Shown: in pieces, positions 4,452-34,051 of the stretch
Position numbering within the stretch: the first letter of the stretch is position 1
How the letters are laid out: every line of letters starts with the position of its first letter
UHGV virus genome: UHGV-0073579
Strand: one strand, 5' to 3'
Source of the DNA: a virus
DNA: 36,345 bases
Position numbers and translations under genes: made by a program
The notes under the pieces: model-generated
Database searches by the model: none
What the model was told of the DNA's origin: nothing
The model's input: only the letters and a program-made list of their open reading frames with translations

Positions 4452-6571
4452 CTGTCACTAGCGAGCCATGTAATAATCCCCGTGCGGGCAATGGTTTTTG
4501 CTTCATCTGTTGATAAGGTTTTCTCCCATCTCTTAAATGCCCCAGATTGCATCAGTTTCCTTTCTATTACGCGTCTCACTTCTGCTCTGTCTACTGGTGC
4601 GTTTTGCAGGCGAAATAGCATTGATTTAAACTCAGGAGAAGACAGTAGAGCATCAGCAGCCTTTATCCTGCTTGTTTTCCCTGACATCAATGCTGACGTT
4701 ATCACCCCTGTTGCACCTACACCAGGAAGACCAGATAAGCTTGTAATACCTTCCGCCGCAGCGGCTTTTGAGGCTATTCCATAAATTTTTGCGAGACTAC
4801 CCTTTTCTTTCAGAAAGTTATTAACTTGCTGATCCACAAGACTACTAGCATACTGCTTACCAGTATTGAGTCTATTCATAGCCTTAGCTGCTTGATAAAT
4901 CGTATCAAGGCGCTTTGATGCATCTGTGCCAATAGCATCACGGAGAGCCTTCATATTGGCCCCATTGCGTGACATTCCGTTATACCATTTTACAAATCCA
5001 TCAACTCCTAATTGCTGACCAGGTGATTTGGCATAGCTGGTAAATGCTTTATTCATTGAGGTGAGCGCAACTTCCTGCCGCATATCCTTTGGAATCGACT
5101 TCATTAATTGCCTAAAGTCGCCACCGTTTCCTTTTGCCATATTAACAACAGCACTTTCAACTTTTGGAATTGCTGATTGCTGAAGTTTTCTACCCAAGAC
5201 GGTTACAGCATCATCTTCAATGGATTTTCGTTTTTTTACCAACTCCTTACCAAGCGTCCATAATTCCCCTGCGCCATATTTTTCTGCGACAGCCTGTTGG
5301 TCATCTGTTATGGCTGCATATAACTTTTTAAGAACACCTGTTTCTTCATCCTTGAATGGACCAGAGCCTTTGCCAATAGCTTGTCCAACCTGCTTTCTAG
5401 CGAGATCTAAACGCCCATACGTTGGCAAGGTGTTTGGATCAAGTCGGTTCAATGTCCGCTTCATTATTGGAGATAATTCATCAATTCCACCTATGTCATC
5501 AGCAAAATCCTCTAAAAAATTCAATGTATTAGTTGCCTCAATCCGGTCTCTTACAGGAACCTTTTCGGCAATTTTGTTGTAGATGTTATCTGACTGATTT
5601 TGTAATGATGAAATGGTTTTATCAAAATTATCTGCAAGCCTGTCAGAAACCAGTTGCTTATCAAGGCTTCCCCCAAATGAAGTTATCATTTCATCAGCTT
5701 TTCTTCCTAATTCAGTAATAAAACGCTTATGCGCCTCACTAATCTCTGTTCCAGGGAGACTTGCCACTGCATTATCAAGAGCCCTGACAGCAGGATTATT
5801 AGAGATCATGCCAGGAGTGGCATAATTTTCCAGTTCTAGCTCACGAATAGCATTTATCGCGTTAAAATCAGGATTAACTTCATCGGCGAAATCTTGAATA
5901 GCTCGTTGCCCGCCGATAAATTTATTGTCCATTGCGCCAGCAGCTTTCTTTAACGTTGCTTTAGATGATTTACTACCCATCCCTACGGATGAGCGATAAA
6001 TATCTCCGGCACTATTTTTAATTTTTCCTGCAATCTTCCCAAACGCTGGACCAACAATCTCTGCTACAGGGCCAGCCACAGCGCCAATAGCAGCTCCAGA
6101 AGCAACATCGCTATTTGTTCCATTGGCTACAATAGCCCCTTCTCCAGCACCAAGCCCTGCGGCGGCAGCCAGCCTTGCCGCCCCTTTCGGAACCTGAGAA
6201 ATAATCCCACCACCACTAACAAATGGTGCTGCTTGTCCAACGAACTCACCAACATCTTGTGCGGTTGATGGTTTTGCCGCTAACTTCTGCTGTAGAGACT
6301 GAATTGCGGCTTGCTCTTCTGGTGTCATATCCTGAAATAGACCAACACCTTTACCAACATCCATCAATCCACTGAGAACGCCATACATAAAACGGTCGAA
6401 GCCGTTAGCATTATTAACAACATTTTCCTGTCTGGAATTTTCCTCTGGTGAAACCAAAGGTGATTGCTGCTGCTCTGCTTGGGAATCAAGCACAAAACCA
6501 TCAGGAAGCTGTGAGTTATCAGGCTGATTATCGAGAACAAATCCTTCGGGTAAACCTACATCGGTTGCCAT
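4448..6571 (-). CDS. Ejection (internal) protein, P22 gp16-like
   Basis: 707-aa ORF immediately downstream of the gp20-like gene in the conserved gene order; Gly/Ala-rich. Confidence 0.65.
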
Positions 6572-9761: not shown

Positions 9762-11179
9762 TACTCAATCCTTATCTGGCAACCAGACAGAGTGACAGGT
9801 GACTTCGTGATAACGCGCAATTTGAAGCCGACATTTTTCCTGATGCGCCCTACTCGCTTCCACAAAACACGTTTGTCGTAAACGAACGGTTCATTCTGCT
9901 CAATCATCTGCTCACGCCCGTAATTGATGCCGTCAGTGGTTGCAGAGAGAAAAAGGCGGTCAGCATACTGAGCGACACCAGTCGATGATTCAACTTCCAG
10001 ATCAAAACATCTGGCGTTCTCAGCTTTGAAGAGTGGTGTAAACAACAGGTGTTCTTGCTGTAGCCCATACTGGCTGCTGATATCGAACTGCAATTTGCCG
10101 ATAACCGATTCCAGCTTATCGCCGCACGTTATCTGATTGCCTTCGTAAATGAAGTCGATAGCGCGGTACACATCGTCATACAGGCCTGTTTTCAGCACAC
10201 ACCATTGCGGACCATTGGCGCTTGAAGATGCGTCGTACACGAGGACGTGACGCGGAAGGTGGATAATCAGCAACTCATGAGCATCAAATCGCAGAGACTC
10301 CATCACGCCATCAGCCAGTTCATCAGCAGTGTAGGAGCGGAGGATTTTCTCAATGCTCGCGCTGGCGATTGGTGACACCTGACCGGAGCCGATGATGTAT
10401 ACAGACGGCGCACCTGTTGCCGGATTGCTGATGAACGCATAAGAATCAGCGAATGGCGTTTTGCAGTAAGTCCCAGCAATACCTTTCTGTACCATCAGCG
10501 ATGGCTGCGCGACATACAAAGCAGCACCAACTGTAGTTGCGCCTGTCAGGGAGAAATATTCAATCGTCGATGAACCAAAGCAGACGATAAAGTCTCGCCA
10601 TGTACCTATGCCGATGATGCCGTCAGGCTGAGACTCAGCACGATATTGTGCGCTGTAACGGTCAGGATGCGATTCGTCTTCAAGGTCAGTGATAAACCAT
10701 GAATCAGTGCCGTCTTTTGACCACGCATAACGCCCACGCAAGCGCGTAATGTCGCGGACTGAGCCTAACTCATACTGCGTGAATCCACTGTCTGTAGGCC
10801 AGTTTGAGACGGTTTTAACCGTGCCATCATAGCGATACTCGACCAGTTGACCATTAACGCCTACAGCCTGAGATGTTCGACCATGCGCCATTGATACGCG
10901 ACCACTTCCGGCGACGTCACCTACTTCGCTTTCGCCTTTGTAGAGCTTGCCGCCACACACACGATAAACAGCATTCTGCGCCATGTTGTACTCGACGCCG
11001 CGCGATACGCCGTTCACATCAGAACGTTTGGCAATGCCCGGGAATGAGCGAAGATATCCGCTACTGTTGAGGATTTCTTTGGGGGTAGCCAACATATTCA
11101 CTGGCAGATAGTCGATATAGTCGGCGTTTCGAAAGTCTTTGCCGACACCTTTCATAAGCGGAAGTTGCTGAATCGGCAT
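9761..11179 (-). CDS. Tail accessory / portal-closure protein, P22 gp10-like
   Basis: 472 aa; [48 protein letters not shown]... is near-identical to recalled P22 gp10. Confidence 0.9.
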
Positions 11180-11188
11180 TTATTCACC

Positions 11189-11650
11189 TCACGTACTCGG
11201 ATCATCTTTCTCGATGTAAAACCGATTCCACGTAAACGCGCTTTTGTTACCACTACCGCGAGGCATGTCATTTCGCCGCTCAAGTGGTGGTATTTTGGTT
11301 AAAGCGATGCAGATTGTCTGATATGCACTGTCAGCAGCGGTAAGGAGAGCGTCTGACGGCTGAATGACGTTATCCATGCACACTTGCACAGCGAGTTTCA
11401 AAGCGACGCCATCATTTGCCCATGCAGGGATACCTGAATCATCGTCAGGTAACGGCATGATGCCGTTTTCTGTATCAGCAAACTGATACCCAAGCTCGAT
11501 ACCTTTAGCCTGCCATGCTGCCATCATGTCTTCGAGGTCATTAATGGCATCTTCAATTGCCTGAGGTTCAGCATCTGTCAACGTGGCATTGGAATACAGC
11601 CCAGCTTTTCGTAAAGCCTTTAGAACGAGATCACCCTTCGTTTTCGCCAT
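11189..11650 (-). CDS. Head-tail adaptor, P22 gp4-like
   Basis: 153 aa; KTKGDLVLKALRKAG...ATLTDAEPQAIEDAINDLEDMMAAW resembles gp4. Confidence 0.8.
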   Translation of the reverse strand: MAKTKGDLVLKALRKAGLYSNATLTDAEPQAIEDAINDLEDMMAAWQAKGIELGYQFADTENGIMPLPDDDSGIPAWANDGVALKLAVQVCMDNVIQPSDALLTAADSAYQTICIALTKIPPLERRNDMPRGSGNKSAFTWNRFYIEKDDPST

Positions 11651-11819
11651 CTTCTTCCGCCTTAGCCACTTTTTGCTTCGTTGCGGTTTCTTCAGGAGTT
11701 TTTACCCAGCCTTTTTTCAGGTGAGATTTAACTTCTTCGTCATCAACAATGATGTAATCGACAGCAAACTGACCACAGGTGATCATGTTGCCCGGCTTAT
11801 AGAGCATTGTTCGTGCCAT
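11631..11819 (-). CDS. Small hypothetical protein downstream of coat gene
   Basis: ATG at 11819 with GGGAGAAG RBS, placed just after the coat terminator; 62 aa; the longer track ORF reads through the terminator hairpin. Confidence 0.4.
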   Translation of the reverse strand: MARTMLYKPGNMITCGQFAVDYIIVDDEEVKSHLKKGWVKTPEETATKQKVAKAEEDGENEG

Positions 11820-11828
11820 TGTCTTCTC

Positions 11829-11855
11829 CCAATAAAAATGGGGCCGAAGCCCCAC
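11829..11855 (-). terminator. Rho-independent terminator after coat gene
   Basis: ggggc-cgaa-gcccc hairpin followed by a T-run on the minus strand. Confidence 0.55.
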
Positions 11856-11860
11856 CTAAA

Positions 11861-13114
11861 TTACTGCCCGGCAATAACGATGCCCGTATATTCAGGAACC
11901 AGTACAGAGCAACCGTACAGAGTGGTGAAACGCGCAGTGGTTACGCCTTTGATGTGGTCGAAGGAGTAAGACATGATCAGCGTAGCGCCCTGCTCGGTGG
12001 TTGCCGTCATTACCTGTGGACCCTGACCAGTCGGGAACGCCAGTTTGCCGTACATCAGCTCAACAGAACCATCAGCCCAGAACAGGTTAGCAGGTGCTGC
12101 GTTCTTGTTGAGAATGGTGATTGCTGCTGATTCTGCCGGTTTGGCATCGACGTTTGCATATGGACGACTCGCAACATCGGTATTTTCAACAGGGAGAATC
12201 TTTGGAGAGATTGTTACGGTAGTTCCGCTAACAGCCAGAACACGGAATACCTGCGGTTGCCCGGTGGTATCTTTTGTGATCTGGTGTACGGAATTCACAC
12301 CGGCAATGGTGAACGCATCACCAACCTGCAAGCCAGATGCAGATACCGTAATAGTCCCCTGTCGGTTATCAACTGGCATACCATTTGAATCTTTCGCTTC
12401 AACCTTGTGTTCAGGTTGGCCTGATACTGTCAAGGATTCAGCGCTTCCTTTCGGTAATCGACCAGAAATATCGGTCTTGTAGCTATCAAAGGAAGCAACC
12501 GGAGGGATCTGCGCTTTTTCGTATGCTGTCAGGGTTGCGCCCTGAGCATAGGCACGGTGACCAAGCTCGCCAGCAAGGTCTTTGTAGTTGAAGGGGTTCC
12601 AGAAAGAGCGACGATTGATACCCTGCGGTACACCAATCGCCGTCATGGTGGCATCAATACCTGCCGCACAGTTCCACAAATCACGGCCCTGTGTGCCTGT
12701 GGTTGAGTCAGCCATCGTGATCACGTTAGTAGCACGCTGCGTGACCATGGAAATCAGGTCCGAGTCAATCTGTGCAGCAAGGCGCATACCTGCGGCGCGA
12801 CCAGCTTCAGTTTTATGTTCCGGGTCACGCATTTCACGCGCATCCAGAGTGTACAGAATGTTTTTCGGCTCCTTGAACACAGAAGGAACAAGGCGCTGAA
12901 CCAGTGCTGTTGGCGTTTTGCCGCTGAGGTCTAGGCCCTCCTCAATGTTCATGTGGTAATGCTGCGGACGATACAGAACATCACCTGCTCGCTGCATTGC
13001 TGTATCACCGGGACGGAATTTTTTAGCGTTACGGGAAACTACGCAGGCGGCCTCAAAGCCTTCAACGTAGTTTTCGAACATGATTTCAAGGTCTTTTGCT
13101 AATTGGTTAGCCAT
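11861..13114 (-). CDS. Major coat protein, P22 gp5-like
   Basis: 417 aa; position after the scaffold gene; segments such as ANLFWADGS resemble P22 coat. Confidence 0.85.
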   Translation of the reverse strand: MANQLAKDLEIMFENYVEGFEAACVVSRNAKKFRPGDTAMQRAGDVLYRPQHYHMNIEEGLDLSGKTPTALVQRLVPSVFKEPKNILYTLDAREMRDPEHKTEAGRAAGMRLAAQIDSDLISMVTQRATNVITMADSTTGTQGRDLWNCAAGIDATMTAIGVPQGINRRSFWNPFNYKDLAGELGHRAYAQGATLTAYEKAQIPPVASFDSYKTDISGRLPKGSAESLTVSGQPEHKVEAKDSNGMPVDNRQGTITVSASGLQVGDAFTIAGVNSVHQITKDTTGQPQVFRVLAVSGTTVTISPKILPVENTDVASRPYANVDAKPAESAAITILNKNAAPANLFWADGSVELMYGKLAFPTGQGPQVMTATTEQGATLIMSYSFDHIKGVTTARFTTLYGCSVLVPEYTGIVIAGQ

Positions 13115-13132
13115 GCTTAATGCTCCGATAGG

Positions 13133-14026
13133 TTATTTTTTTGCCTTTTTAGCGGCGAAATACGGCGTCCAGTCACCAGTTTCCAGCGCCTTGGCTTTCA
13201 GTTTGTCGAGGTTATTGATTACTGCGCCGTTGCTCCCCTTAACTGTCGGGGTTGTGGCTGCCGTGGTTTTTGCTTTTGGCATGATTCTGGCCTTCGATTC
13301 GATACGTTCCAGCAGACGACCAATTGCTACGGGGTTGGTAGCTTCTGCCAGTTGCTTGCGCAGTTCAGCGTTGCGACCAAGCGCCAGAACAACGATTTCC
13401 GGCTTCTCTGACTCAAGAAGGATCATGTCCTGAATATGAACAGGAACATCTTCGCGTACAGCCTGCTCTGCATCCTGGTAGCCAGCCACTTTCAGTGCTT
13501 TTACTCTCTGCATGTAATTGGCTGCTTTCTGCTGAAGCGTTGCGGTACGCGCCTCTTCCTCTCGTTTCCGCTCTCGTACTTGCTCCTGATATTTGCCGTT
13601 ATCCTCTGCCCACTTAGCCATGCGTTGCTGATAGATTTCTTCATCGAAACCGATGTCCTCATCATCCAGTTTTGGCATTCGCGGTGGTTGAGTGATTACC
13701 GGCTGCTGCTCGACGGGTTTCTGAGACTGACGCATCAGCTCTTTCAGCTCGCGGTCTTTCTCTTTAATCGTCTTGCGCAGGTGTTTTACCAGTCCATGCT
13801 CTGCGCCATCTTCGCTGGTTGGCGAATCCAGCTTTTCGTCACCAAAGTAGAATTCCTGTTCTGATTCGTCGTCATCAGTTTCAGTAGCTTCCTCTACATC
13901 ATTGCCGGATGACTCACTGCCATCTTCTGTTTCGACTTCTTCAGCCAGTTCGACATCATCAGGAATCTGCTCTGATGTATCGGTTTCGATTTCAACTTCT
14001 GGTGTGTTTTCTGCCATCTGGTCCAT
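13133..14026 (-). CDS. Scaffolding protein
   Basis: 297 aa, very acidic N-terminus, predicted coiled coil, basic C-terminal tail; sits between portal and coat genes. Confidence 0.65.
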   Translation of the reverse strand: MDQMAENTPEVEIETDTSEQIPDDVELAEEVETEDGSESSGNDVEEATETDDDESEQEFYFGDEKLDSPTSEDGAEHGLVKHLRKTIKEKDRELKELMRQSQKPVEQQPVITQPPRMPKLDDEDIGFDEEIYQQRMAKWAEDNGKYQEQVRERKREEEARTATLQQKAANYMQRVKALKVAGYQDAEQAVREDVPVHIQDMILLESEKPEIVVLALGRNAELRKQLAEATNPVAIGRLLERIESKARIMPKAKTTAATTPTVKGSNGAVINNLDKLKAKALETGDWTPYFAAKKAKK

Positions 14027-21785: not shown

Positions 21786-22060
21786 TGGACAAACACCCTC
21801 CCATTGTTAACCAATTTTTTGAGGGTAAGCACAATGGCCCGATCCATTTCAGCCCTTCGCTCTTCCCTGCTCATATCTCTCCCATTATCAATTCTTGAAT
21901 GACAATCAACACATAGCGCAGCAGTAAGGCAATCATCTACTTTAATCCCAACCCCCTTCCCTTCATTTCTGTGAGCGGCCTGAACTCCGTATCTTCCGCA
22001 AAGAACGCAAAATTCAATATCCCTGACTGCCTGAAGCCATTTTTTGCTTCTAAACATCAA
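21782..22060 (-). CDS. Cys-rich small protein (DUF1364-like), commonly paired with rusA
   Basis: 92 aa with CVLC...C...CVDCH cysteine pattern; ends 4 nt inside the rusA start. Confidence 0.5.
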   Translation of the reverse strand: MMFRSKKWLQAVRDIEFCVLCGRYGVQAAHRNEGKGVGIKVDDCLTAALCVDCHSRIDNGRDMSREERRAEMDRAIVLTLKKLVNNGRVFVQ

Positions 22061-22559
22061 TCCCCTCCAAAAAACGTCGGTACGCTGATTTGTTTTTTAT
22101 GTTGCACACTGTCTGCGCACAAACACCAAATTCTTTGGCTATATCTCTGTATTTGCCTTTTGATTTATATATTGATTTCACTTGTTCTGGCGTTAGTTTG
22201 CAGAAGTGATGATTAAAACCATGAACAAGCAACCCGGAATCAAATCCATGTTTAGCATTTTCTGTTCGCGTTACCCACTCGAGATTTTCAACTTTATTAT
22301 TAAGTTTATTTCCATCCTTGTGATTAACTTCCGGTTTGCCATCTGGGTTATCAATAAATACTTCTGCAACAATTCTGTGAACCATTTTATATGATGGTCT
22401 TTTCCCGCCACCTGGATACAGACCGACAAATGCATATCCTCCTGGTTTAATACCATGAGATAATTTTTTTGATTTACGGCATGAAATGATGTCTCCATTT
22501 TCAGTTACTTTATATATACCCTCAAAGCCGGGGATATCTTTTTCTTTAACATCACTCAT
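22050..22559 (-). CDS. HNH homing endonuclease (NUMOD4-like N-terminus, C-terminal HTH)
   Basis: 169 aa; GFEGIYKVTENGDIIS; HNH core EVNHKDGNKLNNKVENLEWVTRTENAKHG. Confidence 0.85.
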   Translation of the reverse strand: MSDVKEKDIPGFEGIYKVTENGDIISCRKSKKLSHGIKPGGYAFVGLYPGGGKRPSYKMVHRIVAEVFIDNPDGKPEVNHKDGNKLNNKVENLEWVTRTENAKHGFDSGLLVHGFNHHFCKLTPEQVKSIYKSKGKYRDIAKEFGVCAQTVCNIKNKSAYRRFLEGIDV

Positions 22560-27508: not shown

Positions 27509-28159
27509 ATGAAAACTCAATTGATGGGAGAGCGCATTCGCGCTCGGAGAAAAGAACTCAAGATCAGGCAGGCCGCACTTGGAAAGATGGTCGGCGTGTC
27601 TAATGTTGCCATATCTCAGTGGGAACGCTCTGAGACAGAGCCAAATGGAGAGAATCTTCTCGCCCTGGCTAATGCGTTGAAGTGTTCCCCTGACTATCTG
27701 ATGAAAGGAGAGGAAAGTCTTTCAAACATTGCCTATCACAGTAGGCATGATCCAAGAGGGTCATACCCTCTGATTAGCTGGGTGAGCGCAGGATGCTGGA
27801 TGGAAGCTGTAGAACCATATCATAAGCGTGCAATAGATAACTGGTACGATACAACCGTAGACTGTTCAGAAGATTCGTTTTGGTTGGACGTGAAGGGAGA
27901 CTCAATGACGGCTCCGGCCGGTCTCAGTATCCCTGAAGGAATGATAATACTCGTCGATCCTGAAGTAGAGCCGCGTAACGGGAAACTGGTAGTTGCAAAG
28001 CTCGAAGGAGAAAACGAGGCAACTTTCAAGAAGTTAGTTATTGATGCAGGCAGGAAGTTTCTAAAACCACTTAACCCACAATATCCGATGATCGAGATCA
28101 ACGGAAACTGCAAAATCATCGGCGTAGTTGTCGATGCAAAACTAGCAAACCTTCCATAA
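27509..28159 (+). CDS. c2: Prophage repressor, P22 C2-type (HTH plus S24 autoprotease domain)
   Basis: 216 aa; MKTQLMGERIRARRKELKIRQAALGKMVGVSNVAISQWERSETEPNGENLLAL... and C-terminal ...GDSMTAPAGLSIPEGMIILVDPEVEP... essentially P22 C2. Confidence 0.95.
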   Translation: MKTQLMGERIRARRKELKIRQAALGKMVGVSNVAISQWERSETEPNGENLLALANALKCSPDYLMKGEESLSNIAYHSRHDPRGSYPLISWVSAGCWMEAVEPYHKRAIDNWYDTTVDCSEDSFWLDVKGDSMTAPAGLSIPEGMIILVDPEVEPRNGKLVVAKLEGENEATFKKLVIDAGRKFLKPLNPQYPMIEINGNCKIIGVVVDAKLANLP

Positions 28160-28185
28160 GGGGGCATTCGCCCCTTTTTTTTATT
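28160..28185 (+). terminator. Rho-independent terminator after c2
   Basis: ggggc-attc-gcccc hairpin followed by T8. Confidence 0.55.
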
Positions 28186-28204
28186 TCCTTTAAAAATCAA
28201 AGCC

Positions 28205-28285
28205 AAACTTAAGTTACGGAAGAAAATTTAAGTTTTCTTCAAAAATACTCTTGACCATTAATTAAAGAGATCTTAAATTTAAGCC
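28205..28285 (+). promoter_or_regulatory. pL promoter with OL operators
   Basis: -35 TTGACC, 17-bp spacer, -10-like TAAATT; overlapping operator-like site attaaagagatcttaaat and a second upstream. Confidence 0.5.
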
Positions 28286-28324
28286 ATCAGCAGGACGCTG
28301 GAAGCCAAACGGAACAGATTGGCA

Positions 28325-28366
28325 GGCTCTTTAACATTGATGGGATTGTCCCGCCGAAATGCGGGA
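28325..28366 (+). promoter_or_regulatory. nutL (boxA plus boxB hairpin)
   Basis: ggctctttaaca followed by hairpin tcccgc-cgaaat-gcggga; boxB is the exact reverse complement of the element at 27193-27210. Confidence 0.6.
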
Positions 28367-28679
28367 ACCAAAGAGTAGTTGGCTTTGGGGTGACGTGAAG
28401 TGCAGCTGCACGACGGCAACCGGAAGATAAGCACCCGGCGCGTCACCGCCAAAGTCAATTCCATAGGCGTTATGCAGCCGCCACCATATTCAAGAAAGCT
28501 GCACAAGAGGTAGGAGGATTTATGTGAATGCATAACTTCAAAACCGAGGTTAATTAAATCTCTCGATCCGAGCATCGACCTATTAGGTGGCGAGATGCTC
28601 TTTCTGCCCCTCAGTTCGAGGGGCCAGAAACCACTTTGCAATCACTATCAATTCCAAAGTTGTTTCATCGGAGGTCAAC

Positions 28680-28979
28680 ATGACAGTAGTCATTACATAT
28701 CTGGCTGACGATAACGCCAGAAATCGCCGCAGAGCACGCAGACAGGCTCAACGTGAACAGGCAATGCAAGAGCAGCGACTGGCGCGAAAGATTGCGCTAA
28801 AGCTCTCTGGTTGCGTCAGAGCAGATAAAGCAGCATCACTCGGAAGCCTTCGCTGCAAGAAGGCAGAAGAAGTCGAGCGTAAACAGAATCGTATTTACTA
28901 CCGCAAGCCACGCAGTGAAATGGGTGTGACTTGTGTTGGTCGCCAGAAAATGAAATTAGGCAGCAAACCACTTATTTGA
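28680..28979 (+). CDS. N-like antiterminator with arginine-rich motif
   Basis: Start at internal ATG with GGAGG RBS; MTVVITYLADDNARNRRRARRQAQREQAMQEQRLARK; first gene after pL and nutL. Confidence 0.7.
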   Translation: MTVVITYLADDNARNRRRARRQAQREQAMQEQRLARKIALKLSGCVRADKAASLGSLRCKKAEEVERKQNRIYYRKPRSEMGVTCVGRQKMKLGSKPLI

Positions 28980-28990
28980 GAGGAATTAAT

Positions 28991-29614
28991 ATGTCATCAA
29001 TCCGCTTAACTACGAGAATGAAAGAGAAAATCGCTCGTAACGCTTTAATTAAGTCTGGGGTTTTCACTGAACTTGAAGAAGTAACAAAGTTAAAGAACCA
29101 GCTTGCACTTGACGCCAGAGTTATTGCGTTTGGCGGTAAAAAGAAAACTGAGGAAGTGGATCAGTTATCATCCAGGTTAGTAGCTATAAGTGAAGAACTT
29201 GAAAAGATGGGATGTTCATTTTACTCATACGATGTTCGTTCTACTTCAATTTATCTGACTGTATCTGGCAGAAGGGTTGGATGGCATTCATATGGGAAAG
29301 ACGGCAACGGCGAAGATATATTGCTCCCTACTCCAACCAAAGATAAATGCATGTTTGATGCAGAACACGAAATAACAAAAAGGTTTGATGAAATCTGCGC
29401 ATTGCAACAAAAACTTGAAGCCAAGAAAAAGGATATCGAATCAAATGTATGGGCTGCTTTGAACTCAGTCACAACAGTTAAGCGACTTATTGAAGTTTGG
29501 CCTGAAAGCAAAGAATTGCTACCAAAAGAAGCAGACAAAGCAAGTACAGCACTTCCTGCTTTACGGGTAGAAGATTTGAATAAGATGATTGGACTTCCTT
29601 CCGAGTCCGCATAG
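28991..29614 (+). CDS. Hypothetical 207-aa protein, first gene after N
   Basis: ATG at 28991 with GAGAGGAA RBS; no family recognised. Confidence 0.55.
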   Translation: MSSIRLTTRMKEKIARNALIKSGVFTELEEVTKLKNQLALDARVIAFGGKKKTEEVDQLSSRLVAISEELEKMGCSFYSYDVRSTSIYLTVSGRRVGWHSYGKDGNGEDILLPTPTKDKCMFDAEHEITKRFDEICALQQKLEAKKKDIESNVWAALNSVTTVKRLIEVWPESKELLPKEADKASTALPALRVEDLNKMIGLPSESA

Positions 29615-29838
29615 TCGGCCTTTATTTTTGGCACTAACAACAGAATAAACACTGCACTGTGTATTCATTCCAACGAGTGAATACACGGAGCAATGTCGCT
29701 CTTAACTAAACAGGAGCCGACTTGTTCTGATTATTGGAAATCTTCTTTGCCCTCCAGTGTGAGGGCTTTTTTATATGCATACCAATAACGCTTCACTCGA
29801 GGCGTTTTCGTTATGCAATCAAATATAAGGAGTTACCC

Positions 29839-29973
29839 ATGATGCACTTTCAGCTCGCGGGTAGCGGCGTCATGTCCGCTTTCTACCCGCACGAATCTGA
29901 ATTATCACGCCGAGTTAAACAATTAATCAGAGCAGCAAAGAAACAACTGGAGGCGTTATGCGCAATGAAATAG
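29839..29973 (+). CDS. cIII: CIII-like protease inhibitor
   Basis: Start at internal MM; MMHFQLAGSGVMSAFYPHESELSRRVKQLIRAAKKQL parallels lambda CIII MQYAIAGWPVAGCPSESLLERITRKLRDGWKRL. Confidence 0.6.
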   Translation: MMHFQLAGSGVMSAFYPHESELSRRVKQLIRAAKKQLEALCAMK

Positions 29974-30110
29974 CCATTAATCACCAGATGCTTCGTGCGG
30001 CACAAAACAAAGCAGTAATAGCCAGATTTATTGGTGATTCAAAAATGTGGCTTGAAGCAAATAAAGCGATGAAATCAGCTATCAACCTTCCGTGGTATCG
30101 CAGGAAATGA
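29958..30110 (+). CDS. kil: Kil-like small protein
   Basis: 50-aa ORF below the track cut-off; GGAGG RBS; ...AVIARFIGDSKMWLEANKAM... resembles lambda Kil ...ATFIGDEKMFREA... Confidence 0.45.
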   Translation: MRNEIAINHQMLRAAQNKAVIARFIGDSKMWLEANKAMKSAINLPWYRRK

Positions 30111-30185
30111 GTTTTACAGATAACTGGTCAGACGAAGAATTCATTCGTCAGATGAAAGATTTAATCGGTAACGAAGGAGATATTC

Positions 30186-30356
30186 ATGTCACTTGCAACC
30201 ACAGTGAAGGAGAGCAAGTTACAGAGACGCATGTACACGCAGAAAGCTCTCTGGTATCGCCATAATGGTGACCGCGAAGGAATGCGGGTATGCCTTAATT
30301 TGTCCAGAGTCGAAGTATTAAACCAGCGTTATTTCCTTGGGCCATGTCCATTCTGA
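30186..30356 (+). CDS. Small ORF (56 aa) immediately upstream of the recombinase
   Basis: ATG with GGAG 8 nt upstream; overlaps another 52-aa ORF (30107-30265) in a different frame; unclear which is expressed. Confidence 0.3.
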   Translation: MSLATTVKESKLQRRMYTQKALWYRHNGDREGMRVCLNLSRVEVLNQRYFLGPCPF

Positions 30357-30364
30357 GGTGAATT

Positions 30365-31072
30365 ATGGATTTGAATAAATTCGATGAGCCATTCAGCCCT
30401 GAAGATATCGAATGGCGAATACAGCAAAGCGGTAAAACACGCGATGGCAAAGTGTGGGCTATGGTGCTGGCTTATGTCACGAACCGGGCAATCATGAAAC
30501 GCCTGGACGATGTTTGCGGCAAAGCAGGATGGCGCAATGAATACCGCGATATTCCCAACAACGGAGGCGTTGAATGCGGCATATCAATCAGGATTGATTC
30601 CGAATGGGTAACCAAATGGGATGCTGCTGAAAACACGCAGGTAGAAGCCGTCAAAGGTGGTCGTTCCGGTGCAATGAAGCGCGCTGCCGTTCAGTGGGGA
30701 ATCGGTCGGTATCTGTATAACCTTGAGGAAGGTTTTGCACAAACATCTCTCGATAAAAAGCAGGGATGGCACAGGGCAAAACTCAAGGATGGAACAGGAT
30801 TTTACTGGCTCCCTCCATCGCTGCCGGGATGGGCAATCCCAGCATCAGATAACAAATCACCACCAGAAAATACCAACCAGAAATCTCCATCGGTTGACTG
30901 CGAACAAATCCTGAAAGACTTCAGCGATTATGCATCGAAAGAAACTGACAAGAAAAAACTCATCGAGCGTTATCAGCGTGACTGGCAATTAATGGCTGGC
31001 AATGAGGATGCGCAGGCTAAATGCGTTCAGGTAATGAACATCAGAGTTAACGAGCTAAAACAGGCGGCATAA
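30365..31072 (+). CDS. ssDNA-annealing recombinase: Rad52/Sak-like N-terminal domain with Erf-like C-terminal tail
   Basis: 235 aa; Rad52-type GIGRYLY motif; C-terminus ...YASKETDKKKLIERYQRDWQLMAGNEDAQAKCVQVMNIRVNELKQAA matches the recalled P22 Erf C-terminus. Confidence 0.75.
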   Translation: MDLNKFDEPFSPEDIEWRIQQSGKTRDGKVWAMVLAYVTNRAIMKRLDDVCGKAGWRNEYRDIPNNGGVECGISIRIDSEWVTKWDAAENTQVEAVKGGRSGAMKRAAVQWGIGRYLYNLEEGFAQTSLDKKQGWHRAKLKDGTGFYWLPPSLPGWAIPASDNKSPPENTNQKSPSVDCEQILKDFSDYASKETDKKKLIERYQRDWQLMAGNEDAQAKCVQVMNIRVNELKQAA

Positions 31073-31596: not shown

Positions 31597-32145
31597 ATGA
31601 ATCACTTAATGGTTGACCTTGAAACAATGGGCAACGGACCATACGCGCCAGTTATTTCTATTGGGGCGGTGTTCTTTGACCCGAATACCGGAGAAACAGG
31701 AGAAGAGTTCTCGGTAAATATCTCGCTTGAGTCATCAATGCGATATCGGGCGCGTCCTGACGCTTCAACGATTTTATGGTGGATGGAACAGAGTGAAGAA
31801 GCCAGAAAATCGCTAACCAGCAACACTCAGGAGCTTTCAACGGCTCTTTCATGGTTATCTGAATTCATCATAAAGAACGCTAACCACAAATTCGTTCAGG
31901 TTTGGGGGAATGGAGCATCATTTGACTGCGTTATTCTCCGCAACAGTTATTCGCTGACAGGGCAGCCAGTTCCGTGGCAGTGGTGGAATGACCGCGACGT
32001 AAGAACAATCGTCGAGCTTGGAAAGGTAATAGGATTCGACCCTAAGCGAGATATGCCATTCAAAGGAACTCGCCACAACGCGCTTGATGATGCCATCCAC
32101 CAAGCCAAATACGTTTCAGCAATCTGGAAAAAATTAGCTAAATAA
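31597..32145 (+). CDS. DnaQ-like (DEDDh) 3'-5' exonuclease
   Basis: 182 aa; MVDLETMGN (Exo I), FDCVILRN, HNALDDAIHQA (Exo III) motifs. Confidence 0.75.
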   Translation: MNHLMVDLETMGNGPYAPVISIGAVFFDPNTGETGEEFSVNISLESSMRYRARPDASTILWWMEQSEEARKSLTSNTQELSTALSWLSEFIIKNANHKFVQVWGNGASFDCVILRNSYSLTGQPVPWQWWNDRDVRTIVELGKVIGFDPKRDMPFKGTRHNALDDAIHQAKYVSAIWKKLAK

Positions 32146-33155: not shown

Positions 33156-33671
33156 ATGGCGTTAACACACCGCGAACTCTGTCAGATTGCGTACAAGTTC
33201 CTTAAGCGCAACGGGTTCAAGGTTTGCTTTCATGACCGCTTTATAGCTGTAACCAGTACCGGAGAACAGCCAGATGCTATGGGATTCAGAAATTCAGCAT
33301 CATGCTTGATAGAGGCGAAGTGTTCTCGTGCTGACTTGTTGGCAGATAGAAAAAAGCGTTTCCGTAAAAATCCGTCTCTTGGAATGGGCGACTGGCGATT
33401 CTTTATTAGTGAGCCGGGAATTATTTCAGTTGAGGATTTACCTCCCGGCTGGGGATTACTTCACGTTGTTAACGGAAGAGTACGGAAAGTACATGGATGG
33501 CCCAAGGGGAATTGCTGTTGGGGTAATCCTGACGATAAGCCATTTACTGGGAATAAGCAGGTTGAATGCGATTACATGTTATCTGCATTAAGGCGCATGG
33601 AGCTAAGAGGACACCTTAATGAAATATATGACGGTGTAATTGTTAATAAGAAAGAAGGAAACGCGGCATGA
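33156..33671 (+). CDS. Hypothetical protein with PD-(D/E)xK-like nuclease motif
   Basis: 171 aa; ...GEQPDAMGF...(17 aa)...CLIEAKCS fits a D...E-x-K nuclease signature. Confidence 0.45.
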   Translation: MALTHRELCQIAYKFLKRNGFKVCFHDRFIAVTSTGEQPDAMGFRNSASCLIEAKCSRADLLADRKKRFRKNPSLGMGDWRFFISEPGIISVEDLPPGWGLLHVVNGRVRKVHGWPKGNCCWGNPDDKPFTGNKQVECDYMLSALRRMELRGHLNEIYDGVIVNKKEGNAA

Positions 33672-34051
33672 CAACTTTAACCGACAAAGAAATGATTAAA
33701 GAAATCAAAGAGCGCATAGGCAGCCTGGACGTGCGAGACAATATTGAGCGCCGGGCTTATGAAATTGCGCTGGCATCGCTGGAATCCGAACCTGTAAGCC
33801 AAACTTACAAGTTGAACGAGCTGTCGGGCAACTCTCCGGTAATTCCGGATGGTTGGATAAGCTGTAGTGAGCGGATGCCGGAAGAAACGGGTGACATTAT
33901 TGTTGTTTCGGATGGCATTGTAATGTCCGGGATTTCTTATTCTCGTCGTGACGGGTTCTATATAGCCGCATTGGAGTACGACGACGATGAACCAATTGGC
34001 GGTGTAACCCACTGGATGCCACTACCAGAACCGCCGCAGGAGGTGAAGTGA
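33668..34051 (+). CDS. DUF551-domain protein
   Basis: 127 aa; C-terminal ...GGVTHWMPLPEPP typical of DUF551. Confidence 0.65.
   Translation: MTTLTDKEMIKEIKERIGSLDVRDNIERRAYEIALASLESEPVSQTYKLNELSGNSPVIPDGWISCSERMPEETGDIIVVSDGIVMSGISYSRRDGFYIAALEYDDDEPIGGVTHWMPLPEPPQEVK

Follow-up and report, generated by a model that had tools for sequence, protein, structure and literature searches.

The gene at positions 28991-29614 (+ strand) of the virus genome UHGV-0073579, a stretch of 36,345 nucleotides (nt) that we refer to as the window, encodes a protein of 207 amino acids (aa) belonging to the Nmad5 family (PF18757). Our preferred reading, to which we would give a probability of about 0.35, is that this protein is a non-enzymatic accessory factor of phage DNA replication, recombination or processing, which would dock on a partner by means of a conserved tip and tail. 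Searched against Pfam, the protein matches PF18757, 'Nucleotide modification associated domain 5' (Nmad5), with 243.2 bits against a gathering cut-off of 27 (E=3.7e-72), and the alignment is full length, residues 4-203 covering positions 1-206 of the 206 in the profile. It also matches PHROG 1965 (phrog_1965, function unknown) with E=1e-83. A preliminary description of the gene, made from the DNA letters without database searches, had found no family to which it could be matched; that was wrong, and the label 'unassigned' is an artefact of tool-free reading, both the gene and its family being already catalogued. Copies that are 100% identical carry the RefSeq name 'Nmad5 family putative nucleotide modification protein', and copies with 96-99.5% identity are present in mEp235, HK542, HK244, Kapi1, APC_JM3.2 and phages of the Stx1 and Stx2 types. 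The gene is therefore no discovery in itself. Taken whole, the window represents a P22-like (Lederbergvirus) phage or prophage of E. coli, with CUS-3, Kapi1 and 720R6 among its kin.

The open reading frame (ORF) runs from an ATG at 28991 to a TAG at 29612-29614 and is preceded by a ribosome-binding site read from the sequence, GAGGA at 28980-28984 (+ strand), 6 nt 5' of the ATG, so that the bounds, the length of 207 aa and the good ribosome-binding site of the preliminary description all hold. We conclude that the gene is a genuine coding gene under purifying selection. The frame is taken as truly coding because the Pfam match spans its full length, because the starts of aligned homologues coincide with the MSS... 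start of the window protein, and because the 68 distinct alleles found in close relatives contain no internal stops (0 in 68) and vary far more at codon position 3 (149 variable sites) than at position 2 (48 sites). An alternative TTG start at 28931, which would give a protein of 227 aa and overlap N, was rejected because homologues begin at MSS, and an antisense ORF at 29251-29652 (- strand, 133 aa), almost wholly within the Nmad5 gene, was treated as spurious. The protein looks soluble, as had been suggested: its grand average of hydropathy (GRAVY) is -0.39, it has no hydrophobic segments, and the confident structural model described below is of a globular alpha/beta protein. The description of the protein as mildly acidic, on the other hand, has to be dropped, given a computed isoelectric point (pI) of 7.65 and a net charge of ~+0.7 (the median pI of the family is 7.7); nor are these the values of an acidic DNA mimic of the Ocr/ArdA type, with its strongly acidic surface.

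The family to which the protein belongs is large and essentially restricted to phages. A profile search (E<=0.001) returns 2293 clusters at 50% identity; almost all of the best-scoring members listed (~270) are ~200 aa long, and those listed members that have a precomputed Pfam annotation carry PF18757 alone. The window protein, too, is a stand-alone protein of ~200 aa, and it bears the motifs RL..I..NA..KSG, a GG turn, WPE..ELLP and DLN..IGLP. Nmad5 is found in 379 of 50,697 deposited phage genomes. The plasmid collection holds 6 Nmad5 records only, all of them non-mobilizable and five of them 24-49 kb long and phage-like in look, so that the gene does not belong among conjugative leading-region genes. 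It is carried by 211 of 5426 complete E. coli genomes, while a profile scan of genome contigs returned 4 Nmad5 loci only. Pfam finds nothing besides Nmad5 above its cut-offs in the window protein, and in particular no helix-turn-helix or other DNA-binding domain (a weak match to YfjL_C, E=0.0045, lies under the cut-off); an NCBIfam scan of the protein gave no matches, and no family among the PADLOC models matched it at E<=1. The silence of PADLOC is uninformative on anti-defence, because PADLOC holds defence systems rather than counter-defence proteins. The Nmad domains were reportedly defined by Iyer et al. in 2013; in the literature on PF18757, on HK542, HK244 and mEp235 and on Enc34 replication modules we found nothing about this gene. 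The 'NMAD' domain named in the validated and predicted defence systems of DefensePredictor is Nmad2, not Nmad5, and is irrelevant here.

The preliminary description had proposed structure prediction as a check, and this gave a confident model, but one with no relative among solved structures. Using 149 diverse homologues, AlphaFold2 produced a model with a mean predicted local distance difference test score (pLDDT) of 91.8 and a predicted template modelling score (pTM) of 0.81, compared with a pLDDT of 85 for an earlier model that used 22 sequences; a profile search of the sequences in the Protein Data Bank returned coiled-coil noise only (E>=0.35). Three N-terminal helices are predicted (residues 8-22, 24-46 and 50-72), followed by a small beta region (86-121), a long helix (127-158) and three short helices (163-182) that bear the WPE motif. 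Two residues, P178 and N197, are invariant across the 149 homologues, and I14, A18, R43, G48, G93, T162, L166, W170, P171, E172, L176, L196 and G201 are nearly so. The conserved residues are thus mostly G, P, W, A and L, with R43, E172 and N197 in addition, and no catalytic-type set of His, Cys, Asp or Ser is conserved among these homologues; judged from this alignment, the conserved set is of a structural or surface-binding kind, not a catalytic one. Two stretches stand out: the motif T-V-K-R-L-I-E-V-W-P-E-S-K-E-L-L-P, codons T162-P178 (29474-29524, + strand; the R165 codon is at 29483-29485, + strand), and a C-terminal tail motif conserved across homologues, LPAxxVxDLNxxIGLP, codons L188-P203 (29552-29599, + strand). 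The model has a pLDDT of only 50-65 over residues 181-207, and of >90 elsewhere. Because the tail is among the best-conserved motifs and yet has a pLDDT this low, the model suggests that residues 181-207 form a flexible docking motif that may become ordered only on a partner.

In order to see which genes accompany Nmad5 in other phages, we reduced 243 Nmad5 loci to 45 lineages at 70% identity and recorded the neighbours within 3-4 genes; with no control set, the resulting counts are associations, not enrichments. [quoted passage not shown] Primases, helicases, YqaJ, DUF3799 and AAA_24 recombination proteins recur as well. In 7 lineages a cI-like repressor gene is nearby and the early operon begins with Nmad5, just as in the window. 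Genes for DEDD exonucleases (Rv2179c-like or RNase T-like) are directly adjacent to Nmad5 or overlap it in 5 of the 45 lineages, in both orders, and this suggests that Nmad5 and a DEDD exonuclease form a functional pair. These five lineages (L184, L095, L122, L149 and L094, ~5000-6400 in each) are unrelated, and the overlaps are of a few bases. The window has a DEDD 3'-5' exonuclease gene of its own, Rv2179c-like (31597-32145, + strand; Pfam E=2.8e-73), in the same operon and 2 kb downstream of Nmad5, and we regard its product as a candidate functional partner of the Nmad5 protein. The order in this part of the window's operon is Rad52-like annealase, SSB, Rv2179c-like exonuclease, Abc2. Two temperate loci of Providencia type, L092 and L105, link the position of Nmad5 as first early gene in lambdoid phages with its position in the replication modules of lytic phages. 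In both, Nmad5 opens the early operon beside a cI-like repressor gene and is followed by an unknown protein of 234-251 aa, a DUF2800 nuclease and an Enc34-type SSB; L092, whose Nmad5 is 47% identical to the window protein, also has a family-A DNA polymerase.

Genetic data on a member of the family come from Dhillonvirus phages that escape the Tmn immune system. Escape mutants carry the nmad5 changes K216E (phage SM_A8) or K296E (phage SMS22), and reverting the escape mutation restores sensitivity to Tmn (Yamashita et al. 2025, PMC11846954). The same study found that nmad5 can be deleted, that its deletion gives no escape from Tmn, and that the wild-type gene could not be cloned and is apparently toxic (PMC11846954). 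Taken together, these genetics have the look of an altered rather than a lost function. The SM_A8 protein shares 33% identity with the window protein over 101 aa of the C-terminal half (E=8e-14), and K216 aligns with R165 of the window protein, part of the basic pair K164-R165 that stands directly before the WPE motif. The escape residue thus falls in the conserved tip, which is therefore functionally important. Two other proteins were considered and set aside: Ksap1, the Dhillonvirus trigger of KpAvs2, is an unrelated protein of 74 aa, and Anti-Tmn (ORF35) is not encoded adjacent to nmad5.

The preliminary description had placed the gene in the first slot after N, where lambdoid phages keep sieB and ral, and this proves to be so more exactly than was claimed. 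The intergenic DNA at 29611-29815 (+ strand) is homologous to lambda by blastn, and comprises two pieces. The first, 29611-29777 (167 bases), is 95% identical to lambda 34087-33920 and begins at the ral stop codon; the second, 29777-29815 (39 bases), is 97.5% identical to lambda 33522-33483, just 5' of cIII. The sharp junction at 29777-29778 fuses lambda 33920 to lambda 33522, with ea10 cleanly absent. On the left, the junction of the Nmad5 module is the conserved 3' end of N. With its flanks thus matching the 3' end of lambda N and the DNA past ral, the Nmad5 gene therefore replaces the lambda sieB-orf28-ral block exactly. Its N-proximal position in the pL operon is that of ral; its product has no Ral-family sequence, Nmad5 being the only family above threshold in a Pfam search at E<=1.

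Together with the hairpins downstream of it, the Nmad5 gene forms a discrete mosaic module. Homology to the window stops within ~100 nt upstream of Nmad5 in 73 of 88 close relatives; on the downstream side, among the 82 relatives with enough downstream sequence, it extends for 150-250 nt in 45 and is lacking altogether in 23. The gene follows at least 5 different N alleles, at a spacing of 12 or 62 nt, which we take, from their arginine-rich motifs, to be of window-, lambda-, P22-, phi21- and HK97-like types, and at least 15 different genes are found directly after it in relatives. These N genes (window 28680-28979 and loci L003-L082) have at least 5 arginine-rich motifs and a common C-terminal tail, ...RKPRSEMGVTCVGRQKMKLGSKPLI; the place of the conserved tail RKPRSEMGVTCVGRQKMKLGSKPLI is also that of the module's left recombination junction. 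Nmad5 also behaves in nature as a dispensable accessory gene. Of the 77 phage records with a DNA-level match, 48 are from Stx2a phages, and in these the match breaks near codon 35. In L244, the single record looked at (Stx2a phage LC616058.1, record positions 10500-14000), an IS3-family insertion element with an orfA of 108 aa and an orfB of 296 aa splits Nmad5 (630-2626 of the locus) after about codon 36, and the N gene upstream has an arginine-rich motif of P22 type. All 48 Stx2a records seem to share the break, the listed ones matching only from about codon 34 onward.

The timing of expression can be judged from the elements that surround the gene. A cI-like repressor gene (27509-28159) lies upstream of a candidate pL-like promoter at 28251-28279 (+ strand; TTGACC, a 17-nt spacer and TAAATT), which was found by a consensus scan downstream of the cI gene and its terminator and whose function is proposed from the lambdoid layout. 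It is followed by a nutL-like site at 28596-28624 (+ strand), read from the sequence and proposed by analogy with lambda and P22, which consists of the boxA-like TGCTCTTT (28596-28603, + strand) and a boxB-like hairpin of 7 bp, GCCCCTC-AGTTC-GAGGGGC (28606-28624, + strand), that was also recovered by folding. The N-like antiterminator gene at 28680-28979 (+ strand) encodes 99 aa with the arginine-rich motif NARNRRRARRQAQ; over its final 35 residues it shares 57% identity with lambda N, and its match to Pfam N_peptide is weak and under the cut-off (E=8e-4). Only 12 nt separate the N stop codon from the Nmad5 ATG. In the spacer downstream of Nmad5, which at 229 nt is highly structured (fold z=-7.4), we find a 14-bp hairpin at 29657-29688 (+ strand) with the loop CAAC and no T-run, lying in the lambda-homologous DNA, then a strong predicted intrinsic terminator at 29749-29772 (+ strand; the hairpin GCCCTC-CAGTGT-GAGGGC at 29749-29766, then TTTTTT), and lastly a second, weaker terminator-like hairpin at 29787-29812 (+ strand). 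The palindrome of 29657-29688 can also be seen in lambda, near 34003-34050, and might serve as a binding site for a protein, as a processing site or as an RNase III site. The strong terminator, ~135 nt past the Nmad5 stop codon, is the first terminator-like site after pL on the + strand; the sequence scan predicts no intrinsic terminator between pL and that stop codon. Because of this, and because the spacer between N and Nmad5 is too short to hold a terminator, N and Nmad5 probably form an immediate-early pL transcript. A consensus-only scan of the + strand found no promoter-like site between pL and 30113; expression from a repressed prophage is therefore unlikely. An Rfam search of 28150-30400 gave nothing significant.

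The genes beyond the spacer are those of a pL operon. The next one downstream is cIII (29839-29973, + strand; 44 aa, Pfam cIII E=2e-30), which is followed by kil (29958-30110; Pfam Lambda_Kil E=1.7e-20). Further along the pL operon, an ORF of 171 aa (33156-33671, + strand), flanked by an Ead/Ea22-like and a DUF551 gene, matches nothing in Pfam. In the nin region, an ORF of 169 aa at 22050-22559 (- strand) carries NUMOD4 and HNH_3 and is homing-endonuclease-like; it is flanked by a NinX-like ORF and a DUF968-like fragment.

From this set of results we infer immediate-early expression, partner docking and a role in DNA metabolism, and would picture the action of Nmad5 as follows. The gene would share the pL transcript with N and lie upstream of the first intrinsic terminator, so that the protein should already be produced in the opening minutes of infection or induction, with no need for antitermination by N. 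Its predicted helical stalk would bear the conserved tip (R43, G48-G49, T162, K164, R165 and W170-P171-E172), and after the tip would come the flexible conserved tail LPAxxVxDLNxxIGLP. Tip and tail might together dock on a conserved partner, be it a nuclease, an SSB or DNA itself, and Nmad5 would thereby modulate the handling of early phage DNA intermediates; it is possibly this activity that immune sensors such as Tmn perceive. The deep conservation of the family across very different phages, its usual placement among replication and recombination genes, and the unchanged Tmn sensitivity after deletion of the Dhillonvirus homologue suggest a partner in DNA metabolism rather than a fast-evolving immune inhibitor.

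Several points weigh against this reading. The evidence from neighbourhoods is guilt by association, gathered solely from phages that carry Nmad5. In Dhillonvirus, ZRG1 and L097 the gene sits in head-morphogenesis modules, which is a poor fit with a role in replication. The neighbours downstream of it in lambdoid relatives are highly variable, and its linkage to the recombination module is therefore loose there. The slot itself, that of ral and sieB in lambda, favours anti-defence. As for timing, the terminator scan that we used is compatible with Rho-dependent termination between N and Nmad5.

The preliminary description had put the gene forward as a candidate early-expressed anti-defence or exclusion factor. 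The slot, the predicted early expression, the accessory behaviour and the Tmn-linked homologue all bear this out in part, but we see no sign of inhibition or exclusion, and exclusion by a lysogen is disfavoured. That Nmad5 is a dedicated early anti-defence protein like Ral, neutralising nuclease- or NTPase-based immunity of the host or re-tuning a modification enzyme and so protecting phage DNA, is the main rival to our preferred reading, a possibility that we take seriously while considering it doubtful. Such a protein might be expected where this one is found, in exact replacement of sieB-orf28-ral, first after at least 5 N alleles, first or nearly first among early genes beside cI-like repressors in 7 of the 45 lineages, and with predicted immediate-early timing. 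Being patchy and dispensable is equally in character (the gene is split by an insertion sequence in Stx2a phages, is found in 211 of 5426 E. coli genomes, and travels as a mosaic module), and in a homologue a missense change within the conserved motif leads to escape from Tmn by an apparent gain of function (PMC11846954). Even the neighbourhoods are compatible with it, because inhibitors of host nucleases such as Gam and Abc2 also sit in recombination modules. However, deletion of the Dhillonvirus homologue leaves sensitivity to Tmn unchanged (PMC11846954), and the same motifs recur in 2293 clusters at 50% identity from very different phages, which is unusual for fast-evolving immune inhibitors. 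Further, the neutral pI means that the protein is not an acidic DNA mimic, the Pfam and NCBIfam searches found nothing beyond Nmad5 itself, the gene is often wedged between the SSB and polymerase genes of lytic phages, and the window already encodes Abc2 against RecBCD. If the partner were a host nuclease, this explanation and our preferred one would overlap.

The family name raises the question of whether Nmad5 works as an enzyme, or else as an obligatory subunit, in a pathway modifying nucleotides or DNA bases, which we hold to be improbable. YuA gp15, an Nmad5 protein, is encoded next to a 5-hydroxymethyldeoxyuridine (5-hmdU) DNA kinase, within the cassette for thymidine hypermodification of YuA/M6-like phages; in the metagenomic phage L094 Nmad5 adjoins a PurZ/MazZ/DatZ-like cluster, presumably genes for biosynthesis of the Z-genome (2-aminoadenine); in an N4-like phage it adjoins ThyX; and in the temperate phage L096 it lies two genes upstream of an MT-A70 methyltransferase gene. 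Modification enzymes adjoin Nmad5, however, in only 4 of the 45 lineages, and we conclude that the name derives from the neighbours in a subset of phages, those with hypermodification cassettes. The neighbours on which the name rests (aGPT-Pplase, the 5-hmdU DNA kinase and others) are not found in the window: a phmmer comparison of 12 modification enzymes from YuA, L094, L096 and As2 with the 187 ORFs of the window gave 0 matches at E<=10, and no modification enzymes and no methyltransferase turned up when the pL operon and the nin region were searched with Pfam. Furthermore, the M6 thymidine hypermodification pathway has been reconstituted in vitro from gp51-gp54 (PMC8989533), which belong to enzyme families other than Nmad5. 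Given no modification homologues in the window, a pathway in M6 that works without Nmad5, and no catalytic-type residues, an enzymatic role appears unlikely from the sequence comparisons. It is also very improbable that Nmad5 acts from the prophage as a superinfection-exclusion or abortive-infection factor, as SieB or Rex would, notwithstanding the lambda sieB position and the toxicity of the cloned Dhillonvirus homologue. SieB is a membrane-associated protein expressed from the repressed prophage. The window protein, with its GRAVY of -0.39 and its soluble model, does not resemble it, and in a consensus scan, which is weak, pL is the sole promoter-like site on the + strand as far as 30113, so that the gene would be repressed in lysogens. 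In addition, Nmad5 is common in strictly lytic phages (N4-like, YuA-like and Dhillonvirus), and there was no match to it in PADLOC. We are just as sceptical of the idea that Nmad5 works with N or cIII to regulate early transcription or the choice between lysis and lysogeny. In many relatives only 12 nt separate the gene from N, a tight linkage, and it stands directly upstream of cIII, but the linkage to N is explained by the conserved 3' end of N, which acts as a recombination junction; N4-like, YuA-like and Dhillonvirus phages carry Nmad5 with no sign of N or a lambdoid circuit, the gene also occurs inside replication and head modules, and the protein matches no helix-turn-helix or other DNA-binding domain.

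A bolder reading is one that we think unlikely, though worth stating. Nmad5 would be a large, unrecognised class of early phage factors with a new fold that bind a universal component of DNA ends or forks (for example a DEDD or PD-(D/E)XK exonuclease, or an SSB), shielding nascent DNA and in doing so creating a signature read by KAP-NTPase immunity of the Tmn type; in lambdoid phages, these factors would have been captured into the ral/sieB slot as a broad counter-defence. What makes the question worth pursuing is that a very large phage family without known function or structural relative now offers three handles: the replacement of ral and sieB at an immediate-early position, the coupling to nucleases, SSBs and polymerases, and a change at the equivalent of R165 that flips the outcome with Tmn. 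Near-identical copies are carried by tractable coliphages (mEp235, HK542 and Stx1 phages), and what the family does can therefore be tested directly in E. coli K-12.

Compared with the PF18757/PHROG 1965 family at large, which has no demonstrated function and no solved structure, the window protein is typical in its ~200 aa, its single domain and its WPE..ELLP and DLN..IGLP motifs, but whereas a subset of members elsewhere stand beside hypermodification enzymes, the window has none of these. The Dhillonvirus Nmad5 resembles it in having a homologous C-terminal half, with K216 and R165 aligned, and in being the product of a dispensable accessory gene; it differs in its divergent N-terminal part and greater length (254 aa in SM_A8, longer still in SMS22; PMC11846954), and its gene lies on the opposite strand within a head-gene module, not in an early operon. 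Lambda Ral and SieB occupy the same accessory slot of the pL operon as the window Nmad5 but have no sequence relationship to it, and by their coding sequences are 66 and 184 aa long, vs 207 aa; moreover, unlike ral in lambda, the window gene leaves no room for a terminator after N. A further comparison is with the host-nuclease inhibitors of phage recombination modules, lambda Gam and P22 Abc2. These too are small non-enzymatic proteins made early, and their genes lie next to those for exonuclease, annealase and SSB, which is the neighbourhood in which Nmad5 is most commonly found.

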